A stretch of 64,000 bases of DNA from Thiotrichaceae bacterium UBA4486. Lineage in GTDB: Bacteria; Pseudomonadota; Gammaproteobacteria; Eutrophobiales; Eutrophobiaceae. The translations under genes and the position numbers were made by a program. Under the pieces are notes generated by a model. The model was not told the origin of the DNA and did not search any database. It saw only the letters and a list, made by a program, of their open reading frames with translations. The stretch covers positions 155,523-219,522 of the forward strand of contig DGNS01000013.1 of the NCBI GenBank assembly GCA_002389045.1, written 5' to 3'. Numbering within the stretch: the stretch's first letter is position 1; each line of letters begins with the position of its first letter. Of the stretch, positions 9,545-51,020 are shown one piece after another.

Positions 9545-9581
9545 ATAGCTGTTTGATCGATATTTCCGAAACAGCTATTCA
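9542..9581. terminator. Putative bidirectional hairpin between convergent actP and the RND pump gene
   Basis: A 13-bp perfect inverted repeat (TGAATAGCTGTTT ... AAACAGCTATTCA) with a 14-nt loop starts at the actP stop codon. There is no clear U-tract. Confidence 0.45.
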
Positions 9582-9602
9582 GGGAGGCTGATCAGAGCGT
9601 TC

Positions 9603-14252: not shown

Positions 14253-15674
14253 TCAGTATTTGAATTGCGCCCAGACCCAGAGTTTGTCCACGTCACGGTT
14301 AATGCCGTTATTACTGCCATTACGGGCAATGGCCAGGGCGTCACGATCGGCGGAGTAGGAAGAGTATTTGATGCCCAGGGTATATTTTTCACGGAATGTC
14401 CGGCTCAGCATCAGGTCAATTTCATCACCGTAATCATAGCTCATATTGTCGGAGTTCAGGTCATGATAAGCGGCTACGAAGTTGGCGCCCATAATATTGG
14501 CGACCAGTGTGAAAATATAATCCTCGATACCATCACCCGGTGTAATCAGGAAACGATCCGCCCACCCCTGAAAGGCGTGATTGGTGCCGAGAATAGTGAC
14601 AAACCGATCGGCGCCACCGTCACCCTGCAGCAGTTCGTAGCTGAACTTGAGTGTCAGCGAATCGATAAATGCAGCCGGTTTGAAATTGATCCCGGCCTCG
14701 CCGAGAACATATCCGGCATCGATGTCGGCAGGATTATTCTCGTAGTCGCTCTGGTGGGCATATTCCGCTGTATACAGGGCGTTGACATTGTTCATTATCG
14801 GCTGCTTACCCGAGAAACGCAGTCCATAAGTCTGACTTGAGAACGCGGCGGCGTTATCAAAATCCAGCAGGTAGGCATAGCCTTCAAGTTTACCGAAGGG
14901 CAGGCTGGTATTCGTCACATTGACAAAATGCGAGTCGCTGTCGAAATTATCCAGCGGGCTGGTCGCATCCTCGCCGAAGATGCGATTGACGTTCCAGACG
15001 TAGGCGTAATTGATGGTGGTATCCGGCAGATAATCGTTGCTGACCGTGAATGCATCATGGGTCTGCCAGTTCTGTCGCCAGAGTATGGTGCCGATAAAAC
15101 GATGAAACGGCGCCTGGCGATAGGTAATATACTGGCGGCCCAGCCTGAATTCAGTCGCAGTTAACCCGGTATAACTGATAAAGGACTGGTCCACTTCCGT
15201 GCCCTCGGGATCGATGACGGCGGCATATCGCGTCTTGCGGTTGGAACCGTCATTGAAATCATCGCTGAACACCTCGGTGACATTTTCCAGATCCAGGGTC
15301 AGGCCGAATCCGTGAAACCGGCCGGTTTCATAACCGAGTACCGTACGTATGGTGGATGCATTCGCGTCCTTGAGTTTCGTGGTTGTCGCGCCGAACAGGA
15401 TATCGTCATCGACATGCTCGAAGCGGTAGCGTACCGAAAAATGAACCTTGCCGCCGGTCAGCGCATTCCATAGCTGATCTTCGGCATGGGCCCCGGGCGG
15501 CAGCATCAGGCACATCGACAGGAGTATGACAACCGGAATGCCCGTGAGAGCAGGGCCGGAAAACCATGGGTTTACAAGCGTCTTGGAGTCAGTGTTCAGT
15601 GTTCTTCTCCCTTCATGTAGTCTTATTATTAAATTGTAATGTGAGACAGAATTTGTGACATTGATATGGATCAA
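14253..15674 (-). CDS. Alginate-export family outer-membrane beta-barrel protein
   Basis: 473-aa ORF with a signal peptide (...LMLPPGAHA), alternating beta-strand pattern and a C-terminal aromatic residue (...WVWAQFKY). Contains the RFIGTILWRQNWQTHDAF segment typical of AlgE-like barrels. Starts within 35 nt of the nirN stop. The exact start codon is uncertain. Confidence 0.7.
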   Translation of the reverse strand: MIHINVTNSVSHYNLIIRLHEGRRTLNTDSKTLVNPWFSGPALTGIPVVILLSMCLMLPPGAHAEDQLWNALTGGKVHFSVRYRFEHVDDDILFGATTTKLKDANASTIRTVLGYETGRFHGFGLTLDLENVTEVFSDDFNDGSNRKTRYAAVIDPEGTEVDQSFISYTGLTATEFRLGRQYITYRQAPFHRFIGTILWRQNWQTHDAFTVSNDYLPDTTINYAYVWNVNRIFGEDATSPLDNFDSDSHFVNVTNTSLPFGKLEGYAYLLDFDNAAAFSSQTYGLRFSGKQPIMNNVNALYTAEYAHQSDYENNPADIDAGYVLGEAGINFKPAAFIDSLTLKFSYELLQGDGGADRFVTILGTNHAFQGWADRFLITPGDGIEDYIFTLVANIMGANFVAAYHDLNSDNMSYDYGDEIDLMLSRTFREKYTLGIKYSSYSADRDALAIARNGSNNGINRDVDKLWVWAQFKY

Positions 15675-23773: not shown

Positions 23774-23787
23774 TTGACATAAATCAA
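23774..23787. promoter_or_regulatory. FNR/Dnr-type box upstream of nirS
   Basis: TTGACATAAATCAA matches TTGAT-N4-ATCAA at 9 of 10 half-site positions. Its centre is about 85 nt upstream of the nirS ATG. TAGCAT on the minus strand (23751..23746) sits about 32 nt from the centre, where a -10 element would be expected. Confidence 0.7.
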
Positions 23788-23895: not shown

Positions 23896-24642
23896 TTATT
23901 CATTCAGTAATTTCCGCAGTGCATCAGTATCAAGCAAAACGATTTCATGCCCTTTGACGTCAATTATATTGTCTTTTCTCAGCCGCGCCAGTATCCGTGA
24001 CAATGTTTCCGGTTTAATCGCAAGTCGTGATGCCAGAACGCTTTTCGGATAATCCAGGGCGATATGGGTAGCAACGGGTGAATGTTCAGGAATGGAGTTC
24101 AACAGGTGCCAGGCCAGGCGGTAGGTGGCGTTATGCAGGGTCAGGTTATCGATTTCCATGAGTTGTATATGCAGCCTTTTGCACATGGTGGCGAGCAGGG
24201 AGAAGCAGGTATCCACCGATTCCCTTAGGATATCCCTGAACCCGGCCATGTTGATCGCCAGTAACCGGGAATCCTGAATGGCGATGGCATTAACGGGATA
24301 GGTCTGGCCCTCGAAAAACGTCACTGCTTCGGCGAAAATCTGCCCTGGATCAATGATATCAATCACTTTTTCCTGACCGTTTTCAGACACCAGGTACAAC
24401 TGGATCTGACCCTTTCTTAACATATAAAAGTACTCGGCGTGGTCGCCACGATGGAACAGGTGGCGACCCGAAGCCAGGGATATGCTGTGAACCCGGGTGA
24501 GTACTTTCAACAACTGTTCATCATCCAGGGCCTTGAATAAAGGGATTGATTTGAACTCGCTGAGTAGCTCAAGGCGATTAACGGATTGATTATTATTGAT
24601 GTTTTCCACTTGACTTCGGTCAATGCTATATAATTCCGGCAA
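23896..24642 (-). CDS. Crp/Fnr-family transcriptional regulator, Dnr/NnrR type (no FNR Cys cluster)
   Basis: cNMP-binding-like domain plus a C-terminal HTH carrying the FNR-type E--SR recognition motif (PETLSRILARL). The only Cys residues are in DTCFSLLATMCK, so an N-terminal [4Fe-4S] ligand set is absent. The start is non-ATG, either TTG at 24642 or GTG at 24609. Confidence 0.85.
   Translation of the reverse strand: MPELYSIDRSQVENINNNQSVNRLELLSEFKSIPLFKALDDEQLLKVLTRVHSISLASGRHLFHRGDHAEYFYMLRKGQIQLYLVSENGQEKVIDIIDPGQIFAEAVTFFEGQTYPVNAIAIQDSRLLAINMAGFRDILRESVDTCFSLLATMCKRLHIQLMEIDNLTLHNATYRLAWHLLNSIPEHSPVATHIALDYPKSVLASRLAIKPETLSRILARLRKDNIIDVKGHEIVLLDTDALRKLLNE
24610..24623. promoter_or_regulatory. 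Perfect FNR/Dnr-type palindrome overlapping the 5' end of the regulator gene
   Basis: TTGACTTCGGTCAA is a perfect 5-4-5 inverted repeat. On the plus strand, TAGTAT at 24645..24650 lies about 31 nt from the box centre. Confidence 0.6.
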
Positions 24643-24958: not shown

Positions 24959-26323
24959 ATGGCATACCAATACGTTCTTGATATTCCTGAAGATTACCGG
25001 AGAGCCCTGGCGATTAACTGGCTCTGGCTGGCGATCATCACCCTGTTGGGAGCCGGGATATTCTCGGTCTTGCTGGTACTGTCGAGGACGCCGGTAATTG
25101 GCGGGTTGATCCCGTTTACGGATTTTTTCCATACTGCACTGGTTATCCACGTTAACTTCTCCTCGCTGGTCTGGATACTTGCCTTCGCCAGTATGCTGTG
25201 GAGCCTGAACAGCCGTCCGATTTATCCTTTTGCGGGCAAGTCAATTTTCATTCTCGTCGTTACTGCGGCTGTATTTATGGCCGTATCACCGTTCCTCGGC
25301 GACAGCAGGGCATTGATGAGCAATTATATTCCGGTACTGGACAGTTCCGCGTTCCTGACCGGGCTGGGCCTGTTTGCCCTGGGTATGGGATTGCAGGTGC
25401 TGTTCAGTATGAGTTCGATGTTTCGCGTCGGTGAAACCGTGAGCGGGCAGGGGGTCATACGCTTTGGCCTGAATTGCGCGGCCATCGGCGTTTTCATGGC
25501 GCTGGCCGCGTTTGCCTGGTCCTGGATTGAGTTACCCGCCAATCTGCCCGGGGAAACCTATTACGAGGTCCTGTTCTGGGGCGGTGGTCATGTGCTGCAA
25601 TTTACCTATACCTTACTGATGATGGTCGCCTGGTTATGGCTTTCTTCAAGCGCCGGGCTGACATTACCGCTCAGCCCCAGGGTTGCCCTGTTGCTGTTTG
25701 CAGTCGGTCTTGTTTCCATCTTCCTGACGCCGGTAATTTACTATGCATACGATATAACGAGCGTGGATTACCGGGCCTGGTTCACCCGCTTGATGAGCTT
25801 CGGCGGCAGTCTGTCCGTATTCCCGCTGGCGGTCGCAATCATCTACGCCTTGTTTCAAAAACGGGCGGACGAAACCGCTGCCTCATCCGCGCGCACGGCG
25901 CTGGTCACCTCGCTACTGCTGTTCGGGGCAGGTGGAATCATCGGTTTTCTCATTGACGGCAATAATGTAAAGATTCCGGCCCACTATCATGGCTGTATTG
26001 TCGGGGTGACACTGTCACTCATGGGCTTGACCTATCAGTTGTTGCCGGCACTGGGTTTTGACAACATCAATAACCGGCTGGCAAGCCTGCAACTCTGGGC
26101 ATACTCCTGCGGCCAGTTTCTGCATATTCTCGGTCTGGTCTGGTCGGGCGGTTACGGTGTCGAGCGCAAGGTAGCCGATGCCGCGCAGGGATTCCCGTCA
26201 TCAGGTCATGTGGCGGGCATGGGCCTGATGGGGGCGGGCGGTCTTCTGGCAACAATCGGCGGATTTCTATTCATTCTGATCGTCATCCGGTCCATGGTTG
26301 CAGGCAAGCGGCATCGGGAATGA
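24959..26323 (+). CDS. Heme-copper oxidase subunit-I-like membrane protein lacking the helix VII His-His CuB/FeB ligands
   Basis: 454-aa polytopic protein that is collinear with HCO subunit I. It has a helix II His (ALVIHVNFSSLVW), a helix VI FWGGGHVLQF and a helix X PAHYHG. There is no His at all between GGGH and AHYH. Confidence 0.7.
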   Translation: MAYQYVLDIPEDYRRALAINWLWLAIITLLGAGIFSVLLVLSRTPVIGGLIPFTDFFHTALVIHVNFSSLVWILAFASMLWSLNSRPIYPFAGKSIFILVVTAAVFMAVSPFLGDSRALMSNYIPVLDSSAFLTGLGLFALGMGLQVLFSMSSMFRVGETVSGQGVIRFGLNCAAIGVFMALAAFAWSWIELPANLPGETYYEVLFWGGGHVLQFTYTLLMMVAWLWLSSSAGLTLPLSPRVALLLFAVGLVSIFLTPVIYYAYDITSVDYRAWFTRLMSFGGSLSVFPLAVAIIYALFQKRADETAASSARTALVTSLLLFGAGGIIGFLIDGNNVKIPAHYHGCIVGVTLSLMGLTYQLLPALGFDNINNRLASLQLWAYSCGQFLHILGLVWSGGYGVERKVADAAQGFPSSGHVAGMGLMGAGGLLATIGGFLFILIVIRSMVAGKRHRE

Positions 26324-26342: not shown

Positions 26343-27308
26343 TCAACCGGAATGGTTGCGGACCTGCATGGTCAGGTTGATTACCGAAAACAGCAGCAGC
26401 ACGGCCATCAGGTTGTGCAGGGTATTGGTCCATAACGGCATATCGGCCAGGACGTTGAAGATACCCAGTGCGAATTCGGCCACGAAGACCATCACAACCG
26501 CTCTGATGGCGCCGCGCAAATGTGGATAATGTCTGCTCGCCAGCCGCCAGGATATCAACACTACTATTGCCATGACGATGGCTATGAGCCGATGAGTGTA
26601 TTGAATGATGCTGGATGAAGTATCAATCACCATACGGTCATTTTCATCCAGCGTAAGCCTGCGCAACGGATTCAGGCTGTCGGTGATGTGAGCCTTTATA
26701 TTTTCAGTATGGGAACAGGTTAACAATTCCGGGCAGGCGGAGCCGGTGTAATTGGCGCTGGCCCAGGCACCGCTGATTAACTGCAATGTCAGGGTTGCAG
26801 AGAGCAGGTAAAGTACGAAATGGCCCTCGATGATCCGGCGGGACCTCATGCGCAGGAGTTGCCGCCAGATCAGACCCGACAACACGATACCACCGAGGAT
26901 ATTGCCGAACGTGACAACGGGTAAACTGCGTGTCGGTGTCGTCATGCCGATAACGGAGAGAAAAATGACGACGAGAAACATCAGCGCCGGCAATCCGGGT
27001 GCAATAACCCTGCGATAGCGCAAGGCCAGCAACAGGATGACGAGAATATTCACGCCGAGCAGGGATGCTACGTAACGGTGCATGGCCCTGAACGTCCTGA
27101 ATTCCGAATCCGGTATTTGCAAACCCTTGATGCCATCGGCGAACGACAGCTGAGCGTAGCATTGCGGCCACGGGGAGCATCCCAGGCCGGCTTCACCCAG
27201 ACGGATATGGGTACTGAGCATGAGGATAGTCAAGGATAGTATCAGTGCAGACCCGGTCAGGCAGATGAAAATCCGTATCGGTAACCGGTATGGATTCGGA
27301 GTATTCAT
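26343..27308 (-). CDS. ctaA: Heme A synthase (COX15/CtaA family)
   Basis: 321 aa with 8 TM helices. N-terminal Cys pair (GLGCSPWPQC) and conserved His in TM helices (AMHRYVASLLG, THRLIAIVMA, LHNLMAVLL). Confidence 0.8.
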   Translation of the reverse strand: MNTPNPYRLPIRIFICLTGSALILSLTILMLSTHIRLGEAGLGCSPWPQCYAQLSFADGIKGLQIPDSEFRTFRAMHRYVASLLGVNILVILLLALRYRRVIAPGLPALMFLVVIFLSVIGMTTPTRSLPVVTFGNILGGIVLSGLIWRQLLRMRSRRIIEGHFVLYLLSATLTLQLISGAWASANYTGSACPELLTCSHTENIKAHITDSLNPLRRLTLDENDRMVIDTSSSIIQYTHRLIAIVMAIVVLISWRLASRHYPHLRGAIRAVVMVFVAEFALGIFNVLADMPLWTNTLHNLMAVLLLFSVINLTMQVRNHSG

Positions 27309-27419: not shown

Positions 27420-27608
27420 ATGTTCGAAGCTATCATCTATACCACAGCCGCTGTGTTGTTATACCTGGTTTCAGACTGGATACTGCAACGACTGGAACTA
27501 CGTGCCGGCCGGCGATTTGAGCACAGAAGTTTTGTCTTTTTCTTTATAATTACAGTCCTTGCCGTCAGCAGTTTTGCCATTGTGCAGCATTTCCTGACCA
27601 ATCGGTAA
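27420..27608 (+). CDS. Hypothetical small two-helix membrane protein
   Basis: 62-aa ORF with two hydrophobic segments. It has a weak RBS and no recognisable family. Confidence 0.35.
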   Translation: MFEAIIYTTAAVLLYLVSDWILQRLELRAGRRFEHRSFVFFFIITVLAVSSFAIVQHFLTNR

Positions 27609-27824: not shown

Positions 27825-27838
27825 TTGACCTATGTCAA
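27825..27838. promoter_or_regulatory. Perfect FNR/Dnr-type box upstream of the HCO operon
   Basis: TTGACCTATGTCAA is a perfect palindrome. Its centre is about 90 nt upstream of the first ATG (27921). TTTAAT/TAATAA at 27862..27869 sits at -10 distance. Confidence 0.7.
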
Positions 27839-27920
27839 TGACATGTGACGAATTGTCGCAGTTTAATAAGACCTGTTTAATTGAGGTCGTGATTACCACT
27901 TAATCTAGAGGGGAGGTCCT

Positions 27921-28088
27921 ATGTCGGAATCAGAAAAGGATACCAATGAAAACGAGGAAAAGATTCCCGTAATGCAACAACTGCTGGATAATCCGTTTTT
28001 ACTGCTTTTCCTGGGCGTGACCATACCCACTGTCTTCTATCTAATCTGGGGAATCATGGAGATCGTAACGATTCCGATTGCCAAATAA
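27921..28088 (+). CDS. Small single-TM protein, candidate HCO accessory subunit (ba3 subunit-IIa-like position)
   Basis: This 55-aa ORF is below the ORF-track cutoff: MSESEKDTNENEEKIPVMQQLLDNPFLLLFLGVTIPTVFYLIWGIMEIVTIPIAK. GGGGAGG lies 5 nt upstream of the ATG. It has one hydrophobic helix and lies 27 nt upstream of subunit II. Confidence 0.55.
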   Translation: MSESEKDTNENEEKIPVMQQLLDNPFLLLFLGVTIPTVFYLIWGIMEIVTIPIAK

Positions 28089-28115
28089 ATAATATCCAAT
28101 ACGGGAGATAGCACT

Positions 28116-28664
28116 ATGTCGGTTACCCCTCCACAACAAAAAGTCTGGTGGAATGAACCTGTTCCCAAATCAGAACTGATCTGGGTCATCGTCGCATTTA
28201 TCTGGGGCCTGATCATGTTTTTCATGATGGTGTACTGGCATGCTTACGGGGAGCAGAACCTGTCCAACGAATCCTATCGCATTACGGCGGAAGACTACTC
28301 CGCGAAAACGGAAGCGATGGTGGAAAAATACACGGTACGTGAAGAGTCCGGTTACCCGGTCGTGCATCCACCTCCCGGCAGCGACGTCTACCTGATTGCG
28401 CGATTATGGCAATGGTGGCCTATTCTGGAACTGGAAAAAGGGCAGACATACAGGCTGCATCTTTCATCCCTGGACTGGTTGCACGGCTTTTCCCTGCAGC
28501 CGGTCAATATCAATGTTCAGGTACACCCCGACTATGAAATGGTGATTACGACCACACCGGATGTCGCCGGAGAATACGGCATTGTTTGCAACGAATATTG
28601 TGGCATCGGACATCACCAGATGCTGGGTAGATTGTACGTCGTCGATAATGGGGAGAGTAAATAA
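28116..28664 (+). CDS. Heme-copper oxidase subunit II, single-TM, CuA-containing (B-family-like)
   Basis: 182 aa with one N-terminal TM helix and a cupredoxin domain carrying a complete CuA motif (H...CNEYCGIGHHQM). Confidence 0.9.
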   Translation: MSVTPPQQKVWWNEPVPKSELIWVIVAFIWGLIMFFMMVYWHAYGEQNLSNESYRITAEDYSAKTEAMVEKYTVREESGYPVVHPPPGSDVYLIARLWQWWPILELEKGQTYRLHLSSLDWLHGFSLQPVNINVQVHPDYEMVITTTPDVAGEYGIVCNEYCGIGHHQMLGRLYVVDNGESK

Positions 28665-30352
28665 TGGCAACCAATGAACAATACAGAATATGCCAGTCGA
28701 CCGGACTCCGGGTCTATAAATCCGCCGAGAATCTGATCAAGGCCAATGCTGTAGTGGCCGTTGTATTTCTCGCCATTGGGGGATTGTTTGGTTTGATGGT
28801 CGCATTGACACGCTGGAAAGCGGTCCACCTGCTGCCCGCTGACTGGTTCTACCTGGTGCTGACCGCACATGGCATTAATGTGCTGATTGTATGGATTATT
28901 TTCTTCGAAATGGCCGTACTGTATTTTGCTTCGGCAGTATTGCTTGGCTGCCGCCTGGCGACGCCTCGCTGGGCATGGGCCGGATTCGTGCTGATGTTGA
29001 TCGGGGCCATCATGACCAATGTCGCGGTGCTGCAGGGTGATTCCAGTGTCATGTTCACCTCCTATGTGCCATTGAAGGCGGCGCCTTCCTTCTACCTCGG
29101 TATCATCCTGTTTGCGGTAGGTGCACTGGTCGGCTGTTTCGTGTTTTTCGGCACCCTGGTTCTGGCCAAGCAGGAGCGTACCTATGAAGGTTCGGTGCCA
29201 CTGGTGACGTTTGGCGCGACCGTGGCGGCCATTATTGCCGTTTTCACCATTGCCTCCGGCGCCATTATTCTGATTCCCACATTTCTCTGGTCGTTTGGAT
29301 ATATCAGTCATATCGACACACTGATGTACAGAACCATCTGGTGGGGGCTGGGGCACTCATCACAGCAAATCAACGTTGCGGCACATATCTCCATCTGGTA
29401 CCTGATATCCGCGGTGGTGCTTGGCGCCAAGCCGTTATCGGAAAAAGTCAGCCGCGGCGCGTTCCTGCTGTATATTCTGTTCCTGCAACTGGCCAGCGCC
29501 CATCATCTGTTGGTTGACCCGGGCATCAGTTCCGAGTGGAAGGTGTTCAATACCAGTTATGCAATCTATCTCGCTGTTCTCGGCAGCATGATTCATGGTC
29601 TCACCGTGCCAGGTCAGATCGAGGCGGCGCAACGAAAGAAGGGCTTCAACAATGGTCTTTTTGAATGGTTGAGAAAAGCACCGTGGGGTAATCCCGCCTT
29701 TTCGGGAATGTTCATTTCACTGATCCTGTTCGGGTTCCTCGGTGGCATCTCCGGCGTGGTCATGGGTGTTGAACAGATTAACCTCATAATCCACAACACC
29801 ATTTATGTTCCCGGTCACTTCCATGCCACCGTGGTGGCCGGTACCACCCTGGCTTTCATGGCTGTCACTTACCTGCTGGTCCCGCTGATCTTTCAGCGGG
29901 AACTGGTTTTGCCCGGCTGGGCCAAGGTGCAACCGTACGTATTCGGTATCGGTGTTGCCGGTATATCGCTGTTCATGATGGGCGCCGGCACGCTGGGTGT
30001 GCCACGACGGCACTGGGATATATCCCAGGCGGATGCGATACTGCCCTATGACTTCCCCGGCGCGGCAAACCTGATGATGGGGTTGAATGGCCTGAGCGCG
30101 CTTCTGGCCGGTGTTGGCGGTATCATGTTCGTCGTCGTCGTCGTGGGTTCGATTCTGTTCGGCAAGAAAATCGAATCCAGTTCTGAGGTGGCGAAAACCG
30201 ATCCGGCAGCGGAGGTTGCTACCAAATACGGCAGTGAGGAACATCCATCGGTGCCCGGTACGCTGGTGCTGGTTGCGGTATTCTTCATAAGTTTCGTACT
30301 TTACTATTACGTGAACTGGAAATACCTGGCGGAAATCTGGCCGTTACGCTAA
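28664..30352 (+). CDS. Heme-copper oxidase subunit I, ba3/B-family-like, with Gln in place of the cross-linked Tyr (candidate NO-reductase-type HCO)
   Basis: 562 aa. By eye it is collinear with Thermus ba3 subunit I as I recall that sequence (VPLVTF.., APWGNPAF, HNTIYVPGHFH, GVPRRHW). All six His ligands are present (TAHGINV; WWGLGH; SAHH; PGHFH). Helix VI reads HSSQQ where ba3 reads HPIVY. The ATG overlaps the subunit II stop by 1 nt. Confidence 0.9.
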   Translation: MATNEQYRICQSTGLRVYKSAENLIKANAVVAVVFLAIGGLFGLMVALTRWKAVHLLPADWFYLVLTAHGINVLIVWIIFFEMAVLYFASAVLLGCRLATPRWAWAGFVLMLIGAIMTNVAVLQGDSSVMFTSYVPLKAAPSFYLGIILFAVGALVGCFVFFGTLVLAKQERTYEGSVPLVTFGATVAAIIAVFTIASGAIILIPTFLWSFGYISHIDTLMYRTIWWGLGHSSQQINVAAHISIWYLISAVVLGAKPLSEKVSRGAFLLYILFLQLASAHHLLVDPGISSEWKVFNTSYAIYLAVLGSMIHGLTVPGQIEAAQRKKGFNNGLFEWLRKAPWGNPAFSGMFISLILFGFLGGISGVVMGVEQINLIIHNTIYVPGHFHATVVAGTTLAFMAVTYLLVPLIFQRELVLPGWAKVQPYVFGIGVAGISLFMMGAGTLGVPRRHWDISQADAILPYDFPGAANLMMGLNGLSALLAGVGGIMFVVVVVGSILFGKKIESSSEVAKTDPAAEVATKYGSEEHPSVPGTLVLVAVFFISFVLYYYVNWKYLAEIWPLR

Positions 30353-30364
30353 CGCGGGCTGTCG

Positions 30365-31231
30365 ATGATGTATAACGCGATCAAACTGGCAGCATCGGTA
30401 TTCAAGCTCAGGATTGGTTTTGCAATCATGCTGACCGGTCTTGCCGGTCTTGCAATAACCCCCGGCATGGCGCCGTCAGTTGCAGAGACCGTTCTCTTCG
30501 CTGTTGCCATATTGTTATCTTCAGCAAGCGCCGGCGCTTTTAATCAGTATGTTGAGCGCGATCTCGACGCGAGGATGAAGCGTACAAGAAACCGGCCTTT
30601 CGTGACGGGCCGGTTTCGTGCCGACAAATACTGGCTGACCCTGATATATCTGATGTTGCTGGTTTCGGTACTGGCCACCTCGATTGTTATCAATGCAATG
30701 GCCGCGCTCTATGTATTCCTGGGAGCATTCACCTACGGGGTCGTCTATACAGTCTGGTTGAAAAGGCGCACCTGGCTGAATATCGTCATCGGTGGTTTGT
30801 CAGGCAGTTTTGCAGTTCTTGCGGGTGCCGCGGTTGTTGATCCCGGCCTGTCCGCGGCGCCGGTTCTTCTGGCTGTCGCCCTTTTTCTCTGGACTCCGCC
30901 ACATTTCTGGAGTCTCGCTTTCGTTTGTGCCGATGATTACAGGTCCGCAGGTGTACCCATGCTGCCGGCGGTATTTGCAAAACCGGTGGCTGCAAGGATT
31001 ATATTTCTACACACTGTTGCTTTGGTACTGGTATCAGTATTACCGTTTTTTTATGGTCTCGGCTGGATCTACCTTGTCGGAGCACTGGCAGGCGGATTGT
31101 ATTTCCTGAAGAAAAGTTATGATCTCGTCCGCCGGCCATCTGTAGCGACAGCACGCGCCAACTTCAAGGCATCCCTTGTTCAATTGACACTGTTACTGTG
31201 TGCATGTGTTCTGGATGTAGTATTTGTCTGA
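30365..31231 (+). CDS. ctaB: Protoheme IX farnesyltransferase (heme O synthase)
   Basis: 288-aa UbiA-family membrane protein with the NQYVERDLDARMKRTRNRP motif. Confidence 0.9.
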   Translation: MMYNAIKLAASVFKLRIGFAIMLTGLAGLAITPGMAPSVAETVLFAVAILLSSASAGAFNQYVERDLDARMKRTRNRPFVTGRFRADKYWLTLIYLMLLVSVLATSIVINAMAALYVFLGAFTYGVVYTVWLKRRTWLNIVIGGLSGSFAVLAGAAVVDPGLSAAPVLLAVALFLWTPPHFWSLAFVCADDYRSAGVPMLPAVFAKPVAARIIFLHTVALVLVSVLPFFYGLGWIYLVGALAGGLYFLKKSYDLVRRPSVATARANFKASLVQLTLLLCACVLDVVFV

Positions 31232-32099
31232 TTCATCCGGTAACCATGTGCTGTTCCCTATCAAAAAATCACTGATAAATTCATTACCGGTCCTGTGTGC
31301 CGTAATTGCCCTCTGGGCAACCGGTCTGCGACCTGTTGTTGCCATGGATGAGCATACGCACACGGCAGACAGGTATGATAAGGACCAGGCACTGGAGTTC
31401 AGCCAGTCAGCGTTGAACCGGACTATAGGTGACTATGCGTTCGTCAATCAGGACGGGAAACCTGTAAGCCTGTTACAATACAGGGGGAAACCATTGATTG
31501 TCAGCCTTGTCTATACCAGTTGTCATCATGTCTGTCCGATGCTGACCAGCCATCTGGATGAGGTGGTGGATATCGCCAGGGAGGCACTGGGGCATGACAG
31601 TTTCTCGGTTGTAACCATCGGCTTTGATACGGCGGTTGACAGCCCTGAACGCATGCGGCTTTTTGCCAGGGAGCGGAATATCGATTTCAGGGGCTGGGAT
31701 TTCCTCAGTGCGGATGCGGAAACGATAGAAGCATTCAGTAATGATATCGGCTTTATTTTTTTTGAATCGGCGAAGGGTTTTGATCACCTGTCCCAGACAA
31801 CGCTGCTTGATGCGCAAGGTCGCGTTTACCGGCAGATATACGGCGTGCAGTACGAAGCTCCCGTCCTGGTTGAGCCGCTCAAGGAACTGGTGTTCGGCAA
31901 GTACAGCGAGGCAACTCTTGTAGAAGGCTGGATCAACAACATCCGCCTTTTCTGCACGCTGTATGATGCCCGTTCAGGACGTTATTACTTCGATTATTCG
32001 ATATTTATAGGACTTATTATTGGTATTGTTATCCTCGTTTCCATTGCGGTATTTATCATACGCTCATGGCGACAACACACACCCGACAGTAACAGGTAA
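31224..32099 (+). CDS. senC: SCO1/SenC copper chaperone with an extra C-terminal TM helix
   Basis: 291 aa with an N-terminal anchor and a thioredoxin fold carrying the CxxxC motif (YTSCHHVCP) and a downstream His. Overlaps ctaB by 8 nt. Confidence 0.88.
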   Translation: MSDSSGNHVLFPIKKSLINSLPVLCAVIALWATGLRPVVAMDEHTHTADRYDKDQALEFSQSALNRTIGDYAFVNQDGKPVSLLQYRGKPLIVSLVYTSCHHVCPMLTSHLDEVVDIAREALGHDSFSVVTIGFDTAVDSPERMRLFARERNIDFRGWDFLSADAETIEAFSNDIGFIFFESAKGFDHLSQTTLLDAQGRVYRQIYGVQYEAPVLVEPLKELVFGKYSEATLVEGWINNIRLFCTLYDARSGRYYFDYSIFIGLIIGIVILVSIAVFIIRSWRQHTPDSNR

Positions 32100-32102
32100 C
32101 TG

Positions 32103-33677
32103 ATGTCTGCTATCAAAGCCGTGCTCAGGAAAGGGTTCGAAACCATTGAGGACCTGTTCGACAGGATTTTTGGCGCAAAAAACAATCCTTTCTATCAGCT
32201 TGGGGCCCTGGGATGGTTTTATTTCTGGATTGTCGTGGTCAGTGGGATCTATGTGTATATCTTCTTCGATACCGGCGTTACCCAGGCTTATAAGTCACTT
32301 GAATACCTGACGCATGAACAATGGTATGCAGGCGGGGTCATGCGCAGTCTGCATCGTTATGCCTCGGATGCACTGGTTGTGATGATGATGGTGCATATGT
32401 TAAGAGAGTTTGCCATGGACAGGTTCCGGAGTTCACGCTGGTTTGCCTGGTTTACAGGCGTACCCATGTTATGGCTGGTGTTTGCCGCGGGTATTTCCGG
32501 ATACTGGATGATCTGGGACCAGCTTGCCCAGTATATTGCTATCACAACCGCGGAATTCCTGGATGCCCTGCCAGTGTTTGGCGAATCCATTGCCAGGAAC
32601 TTTGTCACCGATGCAAAACTGAGCGGACGGTTTTTTACGCTGATGGTTTTTGTTCACATTGCCTTGCCACTGATCCTGCTCTTTATCATGTGGATACACA
32701 TTCAGAGGCACGCATCACCAAAGGTCAATCCACCAAGGACGCTGGCTCTTGGCACATTCGCAATGTTGCTCGTTGTTTCCTTTGTCAAACCGGCGCTAAG
32801 CCAGCCCCCCGCGGATTTGAACTATGTGCCTGCGACGGTAAATCTGGACTGGTTCTACATGCCGATATACCCGGTTCTGAACAATGTCTCGGGTGTTACG
32901 GTCTGGATCGCCCTGGTGGCGGCCACCGTTTTTTTGATGATGATGCCATGGTTGCCACCGGGCAAACGTCATCCGGTTGCGGTTGTCAATCTGGATAATT
33001 GTAACGGCTGTGGCCGTTGCGCGGCTGATTGCCCGTTCAGTGCCATTACCATGGAACCCCGTTCCGATGGCAGTGCCTACCAGCTGGAAGCTGTTGTGCA
33101 TGCGGATCACTGTACCAGTTGCGGGATATGCGTGGGTTCCTGTCCCACGGCGACACCGTTCAGGACAAAATCCGATTTGTCTCCCGGGATTGAATTGCCC
33201 GAGCATCAAATCAGTGAGCTCAGGGATAAAACCATTGCGGCTTCCGGCAAAATGACCGGCAATGACAGGATTATTATATACGGTTGTGATAACAGTCTTG
33301 ATGCAACCGACGTTATTGATGATAAAACGCAGGTGCTGACCATGCCATGTGTCGGCATGCTGCCGCCATCATTTATTGATTATGTTTTATCCAGAAATCT
33401 TTTCGATGGTGTATTCCTGACCGGTTGCCGGCAAGGCGATTGCAATTACCGCCTTGGCCTTAAATGGACCGATGCCCGCCTGGCGGGTGAACGCGACCCG
33501 CGTCTGCGAAAACGGGTCAACGCGGATCGGGTCAGTAAATACTGGGCAGGATTGACACGGCATAAGGAATTTTTCAGAAAGTTGACGGCTTTTCGTAAAC
33601 GGCTGGCTGCTATGGGGCCAGAACAGGACAGCGGCCAGCAGGGTAAAAAAACCGGGGTTGCGGATATCAATGCTTGA
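32103..33677 (+). CDS. Fusion protein: dihaem cytochrome b (bc-type N-terminal domain) + 2x[4Fe-4S] ferredoxin + MvhD/FlpD-like domain
   Basis: 524 aa. It has two H-x13-H pairs in TM helices (HRYASDALVVMMMVH and HIALPLILLFIMWIH). Two CxxCxxCxxxCP motifs follow (CNGCGRCAADCP, CTSCGICVGSCP). The C-terminal segment is IIIYGC...LTMPCVGMLPPSFIDYVL...GVFLTGCRQGDCNY, as in the methyl-viologen-reducing hydrogenase delta subunit. Confidence 0.8.
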   Translation: MSAIKAVLRKGFETIEDLFDRIFGAKNNPFYQLGALGWFYFWIVVVSGIYVYIFFDTGVTQAYKSLEYLTHEQWYAGGVMRSLHRYASDALVVMMMVHMLREFAMDRFRSSRWFAWFTGVPMLWLVFAAGISGYWMIWDQLAQYIAITTAEFLDALPVFGESIARNFVTDAKLSGRFFTLMVFVHIALPLILLFIMWIHIQRHASPKVNPPRTLALGTFAMLLVVSFVKPALSQPPADLNYVPATVNLDWFYMPIYPVLNNVSGVTVWIALVAATVFLMMMPWLPPGKRHPVAVVNLDNCNGCGRCAADCPFSAITMEPRSDGSAYQLEAVVHADHCTSCGICVGSCPTATPFRTKSDLSPGIELPEHQISELRDKTIAASGKMTGNDRIIIYGCDNSLDATDVIDDKTQVLTMPCVGMLPPSFIDYVLSRNLFDGVFLTGCRQGDCNYRLGLKWTDARLAGERDPRLRKRVNADRVSKYWAGLTRHKEFFRKLTAFRKRLAAMGPEQDSGQQGKKTGVADINA

Positions 33678-34173
33678 ACCACGTCTCATTTTCGGCCAGA
33701 TAATAGCTTATGGCATATTTGCAATCGTGCTCGGCTATTTCTCCAACTCACCGGCTTATACCTATCACGACCCGGAAAAGGCGCTGTTAATGGTGAGTTT
33801 CAGTCATGCCAGCCAGACAAAAGAAGAGTGTCGGCGTTTTACCCAGGAAGAACTGGCGGAACTGGCGCCCAATATGCGCCGCCCGATGGATTGTCCAAGG
33901 GAGCGAGTTCCTGTATACCTGGAAATAACCATGGATGATGAAGTTGTCGTGAGTAATTCCTATTCACCAACGGGTCTGGCAAAAGACGGTTCAACATCGA
34001 TTTATGAAAGTATTCCTGTGAAACCGGGGAAACACGAGCTGGTTTCCAGGATGCGAGACAGCCGGCGTAAGGAAGGTTTCGATTACACGAGTAAAATTAC
34101 AGTCGACCTGGAACCCAGAGAGCTTTTCGTAATTGATTTCAGAAAAGAGCTGGGTGGTTTTTATTATAAATGA
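33670..34173 (+). CDS. Hypothetical N-terminally membrane-anchored protein
   Basis: 167 aa from the ATG at 33670, which forms an ATGCTTGA overlap with the upstream stop. One TM helix is followed by a soluble domain containing two Cys. I did not recognise a family. Confidence 0.6.
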   Translation: MLEPRLIFGQIIAYGIFAIVLGYFSNSPAYTYHDPEKALLMVSFSHASQTKEECRRFTQEELAELAPNMRRPMDCPRERVPVYLEITMDDEVVVSNSYSPTGLAKDGSTSIYESIPVKPGKHELVSRMRDSRRKEGFDYTSKITVDLEPRELFVIDFRKELGGFYYK

Positions 34174-34182
34174 GGTTGTCCC

Positions 34183-34569
34183 ATGAGTTTGGTTGAGTGG
34201 CGCGAGGAATTCAGAACGGGGATTGATGAAGTAGATTTCGAACATAAGGAGTTGATCGAGTTAATCAATAATACTTATAAAGAAGCCTCTGAAAAAGGCA
34301 CCTCAGACGCTCTGGATGAGGGCCTGGGTGAAATATTTTCAAAAATTTCGGCGCATTTCGCTCTTGAGGAAAAGATAATGCGTGAGCTTGAATATGACCA
34401 GTATCAGGATCACAAGGAAGATCACGAACGGTTGCTGGATAGCATCAGGGATATCATGGATGATGTTTCAAGGCTGGATGAAGAGAAGTTCGGACAGAGC
34501 CTGAAGGACTGGTTTGTTATTCACTTCAGTACCAGGGATGCGAGAATGCATAAACAACTGCAGAGGTAA
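34183..34569 (+). CDS. Bacteriohemerythrin-like protein
   Basis: 128 aa. The N-terminus W.EEF.TGIDEVDFEHKELIELIN is typical of hemerythrin-like metal-binding domains. Further H/E/D ligand positions are present (HFALEE, HKEDHERL, HFSTRD). Confidence 0.85.
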   Translation: MSLVEWREEFRTGIDEVDFEHKELIELINNTYKEASEKGTSDALDEGLGEIFSKISAHFALEEKIMRELEYDQYQDHKEDHERLLDSIRDIMDDVSRLDEEKFGQSLKDWFVIHFSTRDARMHKQLQR

Positions 34570-34688
34570 CCTGTGCCGATTGATGCATGGTTTTACCGCT
34601 GCTGTCCGGTCGCACGATATTCGCTGCGGCCTGAATGATTCCCGGTGCGAGAGTACAGGGTGATTCAATAACCACAGGAGAAACCGCA

Positions 34689-34991
34689 ATGATAAAAACA
34701 CGCAGTATTTTGTTGTACTCACTTATGGCCTGCATGCCGGCTGTCTCATCGGCTGGTGATGCCGAAGCCGGCAAGGCCAAATCATCCACCTGTGCTGCCT
34801 GTCATGGTGCCGAGGGTATCAGCCCGAATGACATGTGGCCCAATCTTGCGGGCCAGAAAGAAGGTTACCTGGTCAAGCAGTTAAAGGACTTCAGGGACGG
34901 TAATCGTAAGGATCCCATGATGGCGCCTATGGCTTCGCCGCTCAGTGATGATGACATTGCAAATCTTGCCGCCTACTTCAGCAGCTTGTAA
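34689..34991 (+). CDS. Periplasmic monoheme class I cytochrome c
   Basis: I chose the ATG at 34689, which has AGGAG upstream. It has a signal peptide, a CAACHG heme site and a distal Met region (PMMAPMA). Confidence 0.85.
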
Positions 34992-40517: not shown

Positions 40518-40780
40518 GATGACATCTCCTCGTTCGCGTCATCCTCTTCATAATGCTGGTAAACAACCGCAGCGGAGAGAATGTGTTCGTGTGTCTGTAA
40601 CTCGTTTAACAGGTAACCGGTTTCTTCACGGGTTTGTTTTTCGACCGTGATCACCATGCGCCCGTCCGGCATAACCTTATGGACTTCAACACCGTCTTCA
40701 TTGTTGAGGTAATCGAGAACTGCCGCGCGATGTGCAGGCAGGCTGTGGATCAGCAGGCCACTGATATTGATGACGGACAT
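40514..40780 (-). CDS. napD: NapA chaperone NapD
   Basis: I chose the ATG at 40780 ([15 protein letters not shown]...), giving 88 aa, which is NapD-like in length and has an acidic C-terminus. An ATGA overlap joins it to napA. Confidence 0.85.
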
Positions 40781-41286
40781 GGTGTGTCTCCATTTGCGAT
40801 TGCAGGGGGCTGCCTGTGCATGGTAATTGACTGCACCGGGCATACGGCTACACATTCACCACAACCGGTGCAGGTCTCGGAGTTGATCTGTGGCCGGGCA
40901 ACACCACCGGGCTGTAATTTGAAACAGATTGCAGCACTGTTGCAGGCATCGCCGCAGACCCGGCAGGTTACGGCGTTCACTGCCAGGCAGGTGTCGCCGA
41001 TACCGGCTTTCAGATCCCAGGGGACGGTATCGGTATCGAACTCAACCAGCGCGCCATCCGGGCAGGCCGCCGCACAGGCGTTGCAGAACGTACATCCACC
41101 CTGGCTGAAATCGATTTCCGGGAAGCGACCTGAACCGCGGATGATAATGTGTTCCGGGCAGGCCTCGATGCAGGCTGCACAACGGCTGCAGGCTGCGGTG
41201 AATTCATCCCCGGGAAGAGCTCCGGGTGGCCGTATCGAAGCCCTGTGAGGGCCAAAATAGCCAGTCAGGAATTCGCGTCTGTTCAT
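40750..41286 (-). CDS. napF: Cytoplasmic ferredoxin-type protein NapF
   Basis: 178 aa with an N-terminal RREFL motif and three or four 4Fe-4S Cys clusters (CSRCAACIEACP, CTFCNACAAACP, CRVCGDAC, CTGCGECVAVCP). Confidence 0.85.
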   Translation of the reverse strand: MNRREFLTGYFGPHRASIRPPGALPGDEFTAACSRCAACIEACPEHIIIRGSGRFPEIDFSQGGCTFCNACAAACPDGALVEFDTDTVPWDLKAGIGDTCLAVNAVTCRVCGDACNSAAICFKLQPGGVARPQINSETCTGCGECVAVCPVQSITMHRQPPAIANGDTPCPSSISVAC

Positions 41287-41357: not shown

Positions 41358-41371
41358 TTGACATAGGTCAA
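41358..41371. promoter_or_regulatory. Perfect FNR/Dnr-type box upstream of napF
   Basis: TTGACATAGGTCAA is the exact reverse complement of the 27825 box. Its centre is about 78 nt upstream of the napF ATG. Confidence 0.65.
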
Positions 41372-48016: not shown

Positions 48017-48937
48017 TCAATACTGACCCTGCCAGCGGTAACCCTCACTGCCATGGTAGAATCCGTTGGCGTAGGGAAGAGAAGGTCCGTCCTCTTCCAG
48101 CCGGGTCATGGCTTCATCGGTCGATATGTCCTGGTTCAGCAATGCCCTGAAAACCCTGGCGGTAGCAACCATGTCATTGCTGTGCGGGGATATGCGAAAG
48201 GCGCCAATACCCAGACCCTGCATTTCAGGCAGCTCGCGCACCAGGTTGAGATAATTCCAGGACATTGTCTGCACACCGTTGATTGCCAGAAACGGTGAAC
48301 CGTTCATTGTTTTTAATTCCATCCCGTCAGGATCCTGCTCGCAGATGAAACCGCAATTATCCTTTACCCGATCATGCGCCCGGGCATGATAGCAACGCGC
48401 TGACAGCGCCAGTCCGATACGGCCGTAGACCTGAACTTCAAGGGAAATACCCAGCCTCGATGCGCCGGCACCCAGCACAAGCAGCGATTCATAAGGTAAT
48501 TCCGGTGGCAGGGTGAAGTGTGTTGCCCCTCTGGCAGCCAGTAATTCCAGTGTTTTTTCATTATAAACGTTGAGAAATGGCCCGATTCGATGCGCTTTGC
48601 CACGCAAAAAATTCAACGCCGCCGAATCATTGGCTTCGACAATCGTATCCGCCTGTGCGCACAATTCTTCGGTCAGCCTGCGTTCACGCACCAGCATGAT
48701 CTCCGCCAGGGTTGAAAATACCACGCGTTTTCCCGCCTGTTGCAGGCGTTCGATGACTTCATCGATATACGGTTTGAAAAAGGGTTCGCGTTTGGAGCAG
48801 ATAACCTCACCCAGGTAGACGGTATCCACGGGTGCTTCATCGGCGATACGGAAATAAAAGTCACGCTTTAGTTCGGCCGGCCAGTGAAAAAGAACCGGCC
48901 CCAGGGTCAACTCATGGCTCACGGGTTTCACCTCCAT
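48017..48937 (-). CDS. ubiV: U32-family protein UbiV (O2-independent ubiquinone hydroxylation)
   Basis: 306 aa. The N-terminus LTLGPVLFHWPAELKRDFYFRIADEAPVDTVYLGEVICSKR closely parallels E. coli YhbV/UbiV as I recall it. Overlaps ubiU. Confidence 0.85.
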   Translation of the reverse strand: MEVKPVSHELTLGPVLFHWPAELKRDFYFRIADEAPVDTVYLGEVICSKREPFFKPYIDEVIERLQQAGKRVVFSTLAEIMLVRERRLTEELCAQADTIVEANDSAALNFLRGKAHRIGPFLNVYNEKTLELLAARGATHFTLPPELPYESLLVLGAGASRLGISLEVQVYGRIGLALSARCYHARAHDRVKDNCGFICEQDPDGMELKTMNGSPFLAINGVQTMSWNYLNLVRELPEMQGLGIGAFRISPHSNDMVATARVFRALLNQDISTDEAMTRLEEDGPSLPYANGFYHGSEGYRWQGQY

Positions 48938-49947
48938 TTCTTGCCGGCGTAAGCGCCGTGAGATTGTTTATGACCCTCGGTGAGCGCCAGCAGATTGTCC
49001 ATTTGTAACTCTTCTCCGGCCAGAACACTGTCCACGGCCCGGCGCCACGAGGAAACCACTGTCTTGACATAGGCGCGCGAGCGCTGCCGCCCTTCGATTT
49101 TGAAAGCATTGACGCCGGCCTTTATCAAGTCGGGCAACAGGGTTGCAAGGTTCAGGCTCAAGGGCTCTTCGAAAGCGTAGTATCCCTGTTGCCTGTGCGG
49201 CGCCAGGTAACGTCCCTTGCAGATGGTCGGATAACCGGGACTTTGACCGCAGGGAAAACTGTCAATGGTAAAGATACCCAGCCTGGTCGTCAGGTTACGG
49301 TCCTTGTCTTCATCATATTTCACATGACTGGCGGGAGAACATACACCGTCCATATTCGTCGAATAGCCGGTCACATAGTTGGTCAGGCTGCAGCGGCCCT
49401 CAAACATCAAACCGTGATTGCCGAAGACAAAGCATTCAATTTCACAATCGATTTCCTGCTGCAGGGCCGTGATTTCCGGGAGCGTAAGGATGCGCGGTAA
49501 TACCACCCGCTTGACGGCGAATTCCTCGCAATAGTACCGGATCGCTTCGGCCGATGATGCGCCGGCCTGGACCGAGAGGTGCAGCCTTTGCCCGGGATGG
49601 CTGCTGCGGGCGTAATCGGCAACACCGATGTCGGCAATGATCAGGGCATCAACACCCGCCTCGACGCCGGTGTCTACCGCTTGTTCCCACAGCTCAAACT
49701 TGCCCGCGGGCGGAAAGGTATTGATCGCCAGCAGCACCCTGGCGCCGTGGTCATGGGCATAGGCCACGGCCTGTTTGAGTTCTTCCGGCGTGAAGTTGAG
49801 TCCGGGAAAGTTACGGGCATTGGTGGCATTGCGCAAACCGCAATAAACGGCGTCGGCGCCGGCATCCACCGCCGTTCGCAACGCCGCCGGTGTTCCGGCG
49901 GGACAGACCAGTTCCGGGCGTTTCAATGTGTCGTCAATCGATTTCAT
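48928..49947 (-). CDS. ubiU: U32-family protein UbiU
   Basis: 339 aa. LVCPAGTPAALRTAVDAGADAVYCGL...TNARNFPGLNF, ...YPTICKGRY... and ...FKIEGRQRS parallel E. coli YhbU/UbiU as I recall it. Confidence 0.85.
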   Translation of the reverse strand: MKSIDDTLKRPELVCPAGTPAALRTAVDAGADAVYCGLRNATNARNFPGLNFTPEELKQAVAYAHDHGARVLLAINTFPPAGKFELWEQAVDTGVEAGVDALIIADIGVADYARSSHPGQRLHLSVQAGASSAEAIRYYCEEFAVKRVVLPRILTLPEITALQQEIDCEIECFVFGNHGLMFEGRCSLTNYVTGYSTNMDGVCSPASHVKYDEDKDRNLTTRLGIFTIDSFPCGQSPGYPTICKGRYLAPHRQQGYYAFEEPLSLNLATLLPDLIKAGVNAFKIEGRQRSRAYVKTVVSSWRRAVDSVLAGEELQMDNLLALTEGHKQSHGAYAGKKWR

Positions 49948-50942: not shown

Positions 50943-51020
50943 TGCACAAGATATTGGGGTTGACTATAATTCCCGCTCGTCTGATCAGTCATTCAATAAT
51001 AATATCCGGGGGAAGTGACC

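Follow-up and report, generated by a model that had tools for sequence, protein, structure and literature searches.

A putative eNOR-type nitric oxide reductase operon with a linked cytochrome b-FeS-MvhD module in a proteobacterial denitrification island

The operon and its heme-copper enzyme

The window analysed here is a stretch of 64,000 nt from contig DGNS01000013.1 (positions 155,523–219,522, forward strand), and all coordinates below are positions in this window. Between 27921 and 34991 on the plus strand, open reading frame (ORF) calls together with Pfam and NCBIfam scans place nine co-directional, tightly packed genes. They encode a heme-copper enzyme which, judged by its sequence, belongs to the eNOR family of nitric oxide (NO) reductases, the proteins that would assemble it, and a conserved redox module made of a cytochrome b-iron-sulfur-MvhD protein (cytochrome b-FeS-MvhD) and its partner. 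The genes are as follows:

27921–28088, +, 55-aa peptide with one predicted transmembrane (TM) segment
28116–28664, +, subunit II of the putative eNOR: one TM helix and a cupredoxin domain with a full CuA site; weak COX2/CoxB matches
28664–30352, +, subunit I of the putative eNOR, 562 aa; PF00115, 221 bits
30365–31231, +, heme O synthase (CtaB/CyoE); TIGR01473, 255 bits, over the cut-off
31224–32099, +, SCO1/SenC copper chaperone / thiol-disulfide protein; PF02630; CxxxC motif C100HHVC (100–104); TM segments at both ends
32103–33677, +, protein with cytochrome b, 2x[4Fe-4S] and FlpD/MvhD domains; Pfam and NCBIfam matches
33658–34173, +, 171-aa partner protein: an N-terminal TM helix and a domain of ~140 aa
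34183–34569, +, bacteriohemerythrin; NF033749, 88 bits (cut-off 84); TIGR02481
34689–34991, +, monoheme cytochrome c, periplasmic, c551/NirM-like; PF00034, PF13442

The intergenic distances in gene order are 27, −1, 12, −8, 3, −20, 9 and 119 nt, the final gap taking the ATG at 34689, preceded by an AGGAGA ribosome-binding site, as the start of the cytochrome c. An initial annotation of this region had described the same gene order and tight spacing, and all nine genes that it named were found at their places on the plus strand, the 119 nt ahead of the last gene included. Its count of ten genes does not hold, as it names nine itself. The tenth may have been a 62-aa ORF at 27420–27608 (+); this ORF has two TM segments and no family match, lies upstream of the FNR-type box described below, and has counterparts of 35–58% identity at the same position in many gammaproteobacterial loci.

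Subunit I was aligned over residues 30–491 with the ba3 oxidase of T. thermophilus (E about 1e-46), and its best sequence matches among solved structures are ba3 oxidases only. All six ligand histidines are kept: H69 (helix II) and H387 for the low-spin heme, H385 for the high-spin heme (H385-x-H387 lying in helix X), and H231 with the HH pair H280/H281 for the non-heme metal. The segment GH231-S-S-Q234-Q235 is aligned with GH233-P-I-V-Y237 of ba3, H231 corresponding to H233 and Q235 to Y237. That is to say, the His-Tyr cofactor for O2 reduction cannot form, because Gln235 occupies the Tyr position, and the enzyme was accordingly not classed as a ba3-type B-family O2 reductase. C-family oxidases have their active-site Tyr in helix VII, six residues before the HH pair; subunit I has no Tyr six residues before H280. 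The ba3 K-channel residues Y248, S261, S309, T312 and T315 have as counterparts Y246, S259, S308, H311 and T314, of which Y246, S308 and H311 are invariant and S259 and T314 variable in the homologue alignment A2. In subunit II, the CuA ligands are complete (H123, C158-x3-C162-x3-H166-x2-M169). The window system therefore resembles T. thermophilus ba3 in its small TM peptide, its one-TM CuA subunit II, its subunit I and its possession of a K-channel only, and differs from it in the replacement of Y237 by Q235 and of T312 by H311. The 55-aa peptide, whose gene is conserved directly upstream of subunit II, is probably the counterpart of subunit IIa of B-family oxidases, by analogy with the gene arrangement of the small subunit IIa in the T. 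thermophilus cbaDBA operon.

The motif was compared across representatives of all detectable subunit I relatives. GH-x-x-Q-Q is common to the window protein, to P0241 (56% identity), to P0247 (haloarchaeon, 42–43%) and to the eNOR of Natronomonas pharaonis DSM 2160, which is included in the P0247 family and is 41% identical to subunit I over the full length (E = 1e-132). Gln stands in place of the cross-linked Tyr in every member of this clade, and the next relatives, at 38–44% identity, keep the Tyr as GH-x-x-Q-Y. In a neighbour-joining tree (a distance method, 100 bootstraps, the R. marinus sequence not among the taxa), the window clade, the clade of P0241 and the haloarchaea, N. pharaonis among them, form one Gln-bearing clade with 99% bootstrap; the Tyr-bearing GHxxQY group is its sister, and the ba3-like oxidases lie further out.

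The eNOR family was proposed in 2008 (Hemp & Gennis 2008), and Gln at the position of the cross-linked Tyr is its published diagnostic (PMC8756737); Schwartz et al. report earlier descriptions of eNOR in Natronomonas. The R. marinus eNOR reduces NO, shows no O2 reduction with several donors and contains heme As, and ctaA is present in many eNOR operons (Murali et al. 2024, PMC11214002). Because of the Gln at the Tyr site, the 99% bootstrap clade shared with the Natronomonas eNOR and the CuA-bearing subunit II, subunit I is assigned by sequence to eNOR, a family that is already named and biochemically validated. As for heme As, the window offers the indirect observation of ctaB in the operon and a divergent ctaA. 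The initial annotation had described a B-family enzyme without the Tyr and a candidate non-canonical NO reductase; both descriptions agree with the eNOR features predicted here, and the tree places subunit I in one of the families it had listed. Its view that the system was unexplored fails for the enzyme family, which dates from a 2008 proposal and whose NO reduction was demonstrated in 2024; cytochrome b-FeS genes, too, have already been noted in the Ferrigenium eNOR operon by a 2026 preprint.

With the eNOR family, the window enzyme shares the Gln for Tyr, the three metal-B and three heme His, a CuA subunit II and K-channel-like polar residues, as well as ctaA and ctaB beside the structural genes. 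The N. pharaonis locus likewise has a small peptide gene (49 aa) before subunit II, followed by subunit I and a UbiA gene. Other NO reductase families were compared as well. In gNOR, one active-site His is replaced by Asp and the cupredoxin subunit has no CuA ligands (PMC11214002); it is excluded here, where each of the three His is in place and the CuA site has its full ligand set. A NorB-type subunit akin to C-family oxidases, accompanied by a cytochrome c subunit (NorC) or extended at its N-terminus for quinol binding, marks cNOR and qNOR. Both cNOR and qNOR are excluded by the best matches, which are ba3 oxidases only, and by the partner subunit, which is a cupredoxin and not a cytochrome c. 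Compared by description only, sNOR has no S309 equivalent, and nNOR has His/Met ligation and a cNOR-like site; subunit I has S308 as the S309 equivalent and a bis-His low-spin heme (H69/H387), which speaks against both. Separately, five distant relatives of subunit I (P0300, P0316, P0332, P0373 and P0376) carry F-H-x-x-H-Y in helix VI and Y-H for H-H in helix VII, and on these motifs would constitute another Tyr- or His-rearranged heme-copper family.

The clade is widespread. A protein search with subunit I returned at least 8000 candidates, all with E <= 1e-10; the best 120 matches are 78–98% identical, and nearly all named ones among them are called 'cytochrome c oxidase subunit I'. In a sample of one genome per species, a scan with GH[SMG][ST]QQ[IV]N[VL] matched at least 600 stretches, of which at least 576 were confirmed. 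The closest 80 of these genome loci (67–88% identity) come from the gammaproteobacterial groups Woeseiaceae, Steroidobacteraceae and Sulfuricaulis, the alphaproteobacterial Rhodospirillaceae, Hyphomicrobiaceae, Xanthobacteraceae, Rhodobacteraceae and Bradyrhizobiaceae, and one Bacteroidota bin.

The genes around the operon that bear on its heme supply and regulation are the following:

26343–27308, −, heme A synthase (CtaA/Cox15), divergent from the operon; PF02628, 104 bits
23896–24642, −, Crp/Fnr-family regulator, Dnr/NnrR-like; PF00027, PF13545
21986–23695, −, NirS, from the domain scan of the window ORFs
40750–41286, −, napF

The divergent heme A synthase gene lies just upstream of the operon, as had been annotated. 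Alongside NirS, the window contains the nirFDLGHJN and napFDAGHBC genes, and among its scanned ORFs of at least 300 aa no NorB, NorC or NosZ domains were seen; within that scope, the earlier statement that NirS and Nap are present and norCB, qNor and nosZ are not is correct.

The 14-mer TTGACCTATGTCAA lies at 27825–27838 (+), its centre ~90 nt upstream of the first start codon of the operon. The window contains two exact copies of it, at 27825 (+) and at 41358 (−), the latter ~78 nt upstream of napF, and the orientation relative to transcription is the same at both, just as first reported. It had also been called a perfect palindrome, which is true of the 5-nt arms and not of the central CTAT, which is not self-complementary. 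Of the wider pattern TTGAY-N4-RTCAA, the window has 7 occurrences, where chance would give 0.27. Its other sites lie before nirS, in the intergenic area between dnr and the gene of a second heme-copper homologue, and before nrdD/ubiT; a related box, TTGACATAAATCAA, is found at 23774, ~85 nt upstream of nirS. Of 79 related loci, 51 have TTGA-N6-TCAA no more than 350 nt upstream of the gene for the small peptide, the background being 0.03 per 360 nt. Since the box is shared with napF, enriched in the window and conserved upstream of related operons, control by an FNR-family factor is well supported as a prediction. The probable reader of the boxes is the regulator encoded at 23896–24642: its translation has no N-terminal Cys motif of the kind that forms the FNR Cys cluster, which makes it a Dnr/NnrR-like protein and not an FNR in the strict sense, and a Crp/Fnr gene adjoins the cluster in several related loci.

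It might be supposed that the enzyme still reduces oxygen, alone or besides NO, and serves to respire microaerobically or to scavenge O2, and that its link to denitrification is mere low-oxygen co-regulation. Many bacteria do have high-affinity oxidases driven by FNR-type boxes, both the a-type heme pathway and the hemerythrin have to do with oxygen, and the nearest relatives outside the clade are the Tyr-bearing GHxxQY proteins. This is nevertheless a highly improbable reading, against which stand the Gln in every clade member (GH[SMG][ST]QQ in the confirmed stretches), the lack of a Tyr at the alternative helix VII position, the failure of the R. marinus eNOR to reduce O2 with several donors (PMC11214002), and a regulator of Dnr-like type, the same box being found at nap and the related one before nirS.

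One membrane-spanning redox unit adjoining eNOR

The protein encoded at 32103–33677 consists of a six-TM cytochrome b6-like domain, followed by a cytoplasmic 2x[4Fe-4S] part and an MvhD-like domain, and its best PDB matches are accordingly cytochrome b6 (1.5e-20) and MvhD. The heme ligands of the cytochrome b part are H84, H98, H185 and H199. The same part carries a Qo-like motif, L-D249-W250-F-Y, as against P-E-W-Y in bc complexes. The cysteines for the two [4Fe-4S] clusters are C300/303/306/310 and C337/340/343/347, and those of the MvhD-like domain are C395, C416, C442 and C447. Across 110 homologues, the four heme His, D249-W250, the eight ferredoxin Cys and the four MvhD Cys are all kept.

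The gene of the 171-aa partner overlaps this gene by 20 nt. The partner has no Pfam or NCBIfam match, and none was obtained in a profile search of PDB sequences; a single-sequence AlphaFold model of it reaches a pLDDT of 37.8, too low to be of use. In the homologue alignment, H50, C58, C79, R81, R83 and D134 are invariant, and no heme c or Rieske motif was seen in the ~140-aa domain. In 46 of 109 homologues, the partner is fused in frame to the C-terminus of cytochrome b-FeS-MvhD (for example in L016, L021, L026, L033, L054, L058, L069, L071 and L087, the L087 product being 715 aa long), and the fusion is found in all 34 sister-clade cases. Because the two are fused into one polypeptide, they are parts of one complex. 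The fusion also implies the topology: six TM helices, the cytoplasmic ferredoxin and MvhD domains, a seventh TM helix, and then the ~140-aa domain, which would be periplasmic.

The survey of the gene neighbourhood covered 80 genome loci of the window clade (L006–L085) and 80 metagenome loci of the sister clade around P0241 (L087–L166), whose subunit I is 50–59% identical to the window protein. The window proteins were mapped onto the loci by tblastn and hidden Markov models, and the counts are confined to loci that extend at least 6.5 kb downstream of subunit I, namely 61 of the window clade and 24 of the sister clade. The counts are as follows (window clade; sister clade):

sco1: 61/61; 21/24
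cytochrome b-FeS-MvhD: 61/61; 24/24
171-aa partner: 61/61; 22/24
hemerythrin: 57/61; 0/24
ctaB: 47/61; 11/24
small peptide: 59/61; 21/24
cytochrome c: 3/61; 1/24
ctaA within 10 kb: 9/61; 1/24
second heme-copper homologue: 6/61; 18/24

In total, cytochrome b-FeS-MvhD adjoins eNOR in 85 of 85 loci and the 171-aa partner in 83 of 85, which, with the gene fusion, rules out that these accessory genes are chance neighbours. Conservation and gene fusion together show that cytochrome b-FeS-MvhD and its partner make up a single redox unit, which spans the membrane and belongs with the eNOR of proteobacteria. The co-occurrence of the fusion protein, the then unassigned partner and the hemerythrin with this subunit I clade, which the initial annotation had proposed to check, is thus confirmed, with the hemerythrin limited to the window clade. 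The cytochrome c, which had been counted as part of the same unit, is not a conserved member of it, being found in 3 of 61 window-clade loci; the 34689–34991 protein is a lineage-specific addition and a likely electron donor. Its homologues adjoin nirS in L127 and L129, and ctaA stands after the hemerythrin gene in L001 and L004.

The two halves of the large protein have known counterparts. Its N-terminal half aligns with cytochrome b6 of the Rieske/cytochrome b complexes, with the four heme His and the Qo-like D-W, and its C-terminal domain aligns, with four Cys, with MvhD of the Mvh-Hdr complexes. Unlike in those systems, there are no Rieske, cytochrome c1 or f, hydrogenase or Hdr genes near the window module, and the b cytochrome shares one polypeptide with ferredoxin and MvhD domains and, in homologues, often with the periplasmic domain too. 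Rieske and c1/f genes were likewise not seen in the surveyed related loci, and a Rieske/cytochrome b complex was rejected for 32103–33677 on this ground, although the four His and the Qo-like motif are kept.

The closest published case is the eNOR operon of Ferrigenium straubiae, which contains eNOR, heme o synthase, sco1, a 'scaffold protein of unknown function' and two cytochrome b-[FeS] proteins, one of them with FAD and NADH domains (bioRxiv 10.64898/2026.01.22.701106). [quoted passage not shown] Compared by description, the two operons share eNOR II, eNOR I, heme o synthase, sco1 and the cytochrome b and FeS proteins; they differ in the cytoplasmic end, which in the window is MvhD-like and in one F. 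straubiae protein carries FAD and NADH domains, and in the hemerythrin, which is unmentioned there. Literature searches found no paper that ties eNOR to hemerythrin, to an MvhD domain/cytochrome b, or to Woeseiaceae. What goes beyond the literature consulted is that two large eNOR clades of proteobacteria carry the module as a rule, that its partner is often fused to it, and that the hemerythrin is clade-specific.

The second heme-copper homologue and the surrounding genes

Two further features of the window were absent from the initial annotation:

24959–26323, +, second divergent heme-copper homologue, 454 aa; PF00115, 52 bits
46549–47799, −, NnrS; PF05940

The 24959–26323 protein lies between dnr and ctaA. 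It has ~11 hydropathy-predicted TM segments and no NCBIfam or PDB sequence match. The residues conserved in 39 homologues are H64 (helix II), W-G-x-G-H211-V-L-Q, P-A-H342-Y-H344 and R403-K404; that is to say, three heme-ligand His and one metal-B His are kept without the HH pair, at whose position there is no conserved His, Asp or Glu. The protein falls into a separate clade (94% bootstrap) and has no cupredoxin partner or subunit II. By these residues it looks like a two-heme, metal-B-less derivative. It was also considered as a gNOR and rejected, having neither a conserved Asp/His at the HH pair site nor a cupredoxin partner.

The bacteriohemerythrin contains all seven di-iron ligands (H21, H58, E62, H77, H81, H114 and D119) and no signal peptide, and is cytoplasmic. 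Its distribution and that of the second heme-copper homologue are near-complementary: the hemerythrin is found in 57 and the homologue in 6 of the 61 window-clade loci, as against none and 18 of the 24 sister-clade loci, in which the homologue stands directly upstream of the small peptide gene. The window carries both. The two may be alternative solutions to one task.

The window is an anaerobiosis and denitrification island. NnrS-family proteins are heme- and copper-containing membrane proteins commonly tied to NO stress. Two U32-peptidase-family genes and an SCP2 gene lie among 48017–50518 (−) / 51015–53066 (+), divergent from nrdD (anaerobic ribonucleotide reductase), with an FNR-type box at 50929 between them and nrdD; they resemble ubiUVT and are presumably genes of O2-independent ubiquinone synthesis. 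Downstream of nirN, a 473-aa ORF (14253–15674, −) has no Pfam match and a weak Opr-porin NCBIfam match, and an FNR-type box at 15661–15674 overlaps its predicted start.

Proposed mechanism and its meaning

Taken together, the region is read, with a probability of roughly 0.8, as the operon of an eNOR-type NO reductase derived from the B family, which reduces 2 NO to N2O, with regulation, catalysis and module as proposed in the following. The nearby-encoded Dnr-like Crp/Fnr regulator would bind the TTGAC-N4-GTCAA box, as the sequence motif suggests, and the operon would be switched on together with nap and nirS at low oxygen or on the appearance of NO. The a-type heme would be the work of CtaB and CtaA, Sco1 would help to assemble CuA, and the 55-aa peptide would probably act as a subunit IIa-like third subunit. 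The catalytic steps follow by homology from the enzyme characterised in R. marinus. Electrons would be fed in by a cytochrome c of the periplasm, in this case probably the c551-like protein that the last gene encodes, and would pass from CuA in subunit II to the low-spin heme and then to the high-spin heme / non-heme metal site in subunit I. At this site, 2 NO, 2 e- and 2 H+ would give N2O and H2O, with Gln234/Gln235 replacing the Tyr needed for O2 reduction. The cytoplasm is the probable source of the protons, and their passage along a K-channel-like path (Y246, S259, S308, H311, T314) would make the step electrogenic.

In the module, the two b hemes would lie in the membrane, the FeS clusters in the cytoplasm and the cofactor-less His/Cys2 domain in the periplasm. 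Its function is put forward more tentatively, at somewhat less than even odds: a quinol-linked electron-transfer unit that ties the quinone pool and a cytoplasmic partner to eNOR, possibly splitting electrons. Electron transfer is favoured because the Qo-like motif is conserved and the module is universal beside the structural genes. On this view, the hemerythrin would bind O2 or NO in the cytoplasm as a clade-specific partner of the FeS end. The self-contained, possibly quinol-linked respiratory unit of the initial annotation is a conjecture of the same kind, as no evidence was found on the path of the electrons.

Several observations weigh against the reading of the region as a whole. The link to the tested R. 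marinus eNOR is indirect, made by way of the family signature and the clade shared with Natronomonas. Scans for promoters and terminators gave counts at the level of shuffled sequence and are uninformative on co-transcription. The periplasmic domain of the partner has no recognisable redox cofactor motif, and for this reason no route from the b hemes to CuA is evident. In N. pharaonis, the eNOR locus lacks the genes for cytochrome b-FeS-MvhD, for its partner and for the hemerythrin, so that the strict linkage of the module distinguishes the proteobacterial clades within the family, as does the hemerythrin of the window clade, and the module is not needed for eNOR catalysis as such. Finally, in one gammaproteobacterial genome (L005; CP070821.1, 138043–159626, genes 8128–12483), ctaB, sco1, the module and the hemerythrin stand together with no subunit I/II within 10 kb, a layout that fits a maturation role better than an electron-input role. 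A 136-aa ORF lies upstream of these genes in L005.

Such a role in maturation could take two forms: the module might supply electrons, and the hemerythrin capture or store trace O2, for heme a synthesis by CtaA near anoxia, or the His/Cys2 domain might help Sco1 to keep the CuA Cys reduced or metallated. Heme A synthase requires both O2 and a reductant, eukaryotic Cox15 depends on ferredoxin and a ferredoxin reductase, and the partner domain, with its invariant His and two Cys, is chaperone-like. Besides its occurrence with ctaB and sco1 in L005, where the structural genes are missing, the module is always accompanied by sco1 (61/61), usually by ctaB (47/61) and sometimes by ctaA, and the source of O2 for heme A in anoxic eNOR organisms is an explicit open question (bioRxiv 10.64898/2026.01.22.701106; PMC11214002). 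Even so, ctaA lies within 10 kb in only 9 of 61 loci, a Qo-like motif and two transmembrane hemes seem excessive for an electron donor to CtaA, and the archaeal eNOR, presumably with the same heme, does without the module. Maturation is on balance unlikely to be the function of the module.

The cytoplasmic side of the module suggests yet another role, in which module and hemerythrin would carry out NO/O2 detoxification or repair facing the cytoplasm, quinol electrons re-reducing a di-iron hemerythrin that binds or reduces leaked NO or O2. Topology puts the FeS and MvhD domains, like the hemerythrin, in the cytoplasm, a response to nitrosative stress is seen in hemerythrin-like di-iron proteins such as YtfE/RIC, and a path leading electrons from quinol on the P side to an acceptor in the cytoplasm would conserve energy, as in NarGHI. 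Detoxification is still improbable, as it leaves the conserved periplasmic domain unexplained and no evidence was found for NO turnover by bacteriohemerythrins of this type. Moreover, the sister clade has the hemerythrin in 0 of 24 loci though the module is kept, and this absence weakens both maturation and detoxification as explanations of the whole module.

The electron-transfer reading of the module can be carried one step further, to a speculative and rather improbable form, in which proteobacterial eNOR is the high-potential arm of a Rieske-less quinol-oxidising supercomplex. Its Qo site would split the electrons of quinol, sending one to CuA and NO and the other to a low-potential cytoplasmic acceptor. 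By way of the b hemes, both [4Fe-4S] clusters and the MvhD-type cluster, the second electron would be pushed on to its acceptor, which might be ferredoxin, NAD(P)+ or else the hemerythrin, and the downhill electron would be drawn by the NO/N2O couple at about +1.2 V. If this were true, NO respiration would drive reverse electron flow in chemolithotrophs, and the handling of O2 or NO would fall to the CuB-less heme-copper homologue and the hemerythrin as alternative partners.

In summary, the operon is a new and environmentally common member of the known eNOR family, and its main interest lies in the module, the hemerythrin and the second homologue. The module is a testable lead on how eNOR is wired to the quinone pool and to energy conservation, and also on how the O2-dependent heme a cofactor is made in denitrifiers living at very low oxygen. 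As eNOR genes are still labelled 'cytochrome c oxidase subunit I', genomes like this one look able to make NO through NirS yet unable to remove it. Recognising the eNOR operon fills this gap in NO removal for widespread marine and soil Gamma- and Alphaproteobacteria, including Woeseiaceae, and bears on the prediction of which organisms emit N2O.

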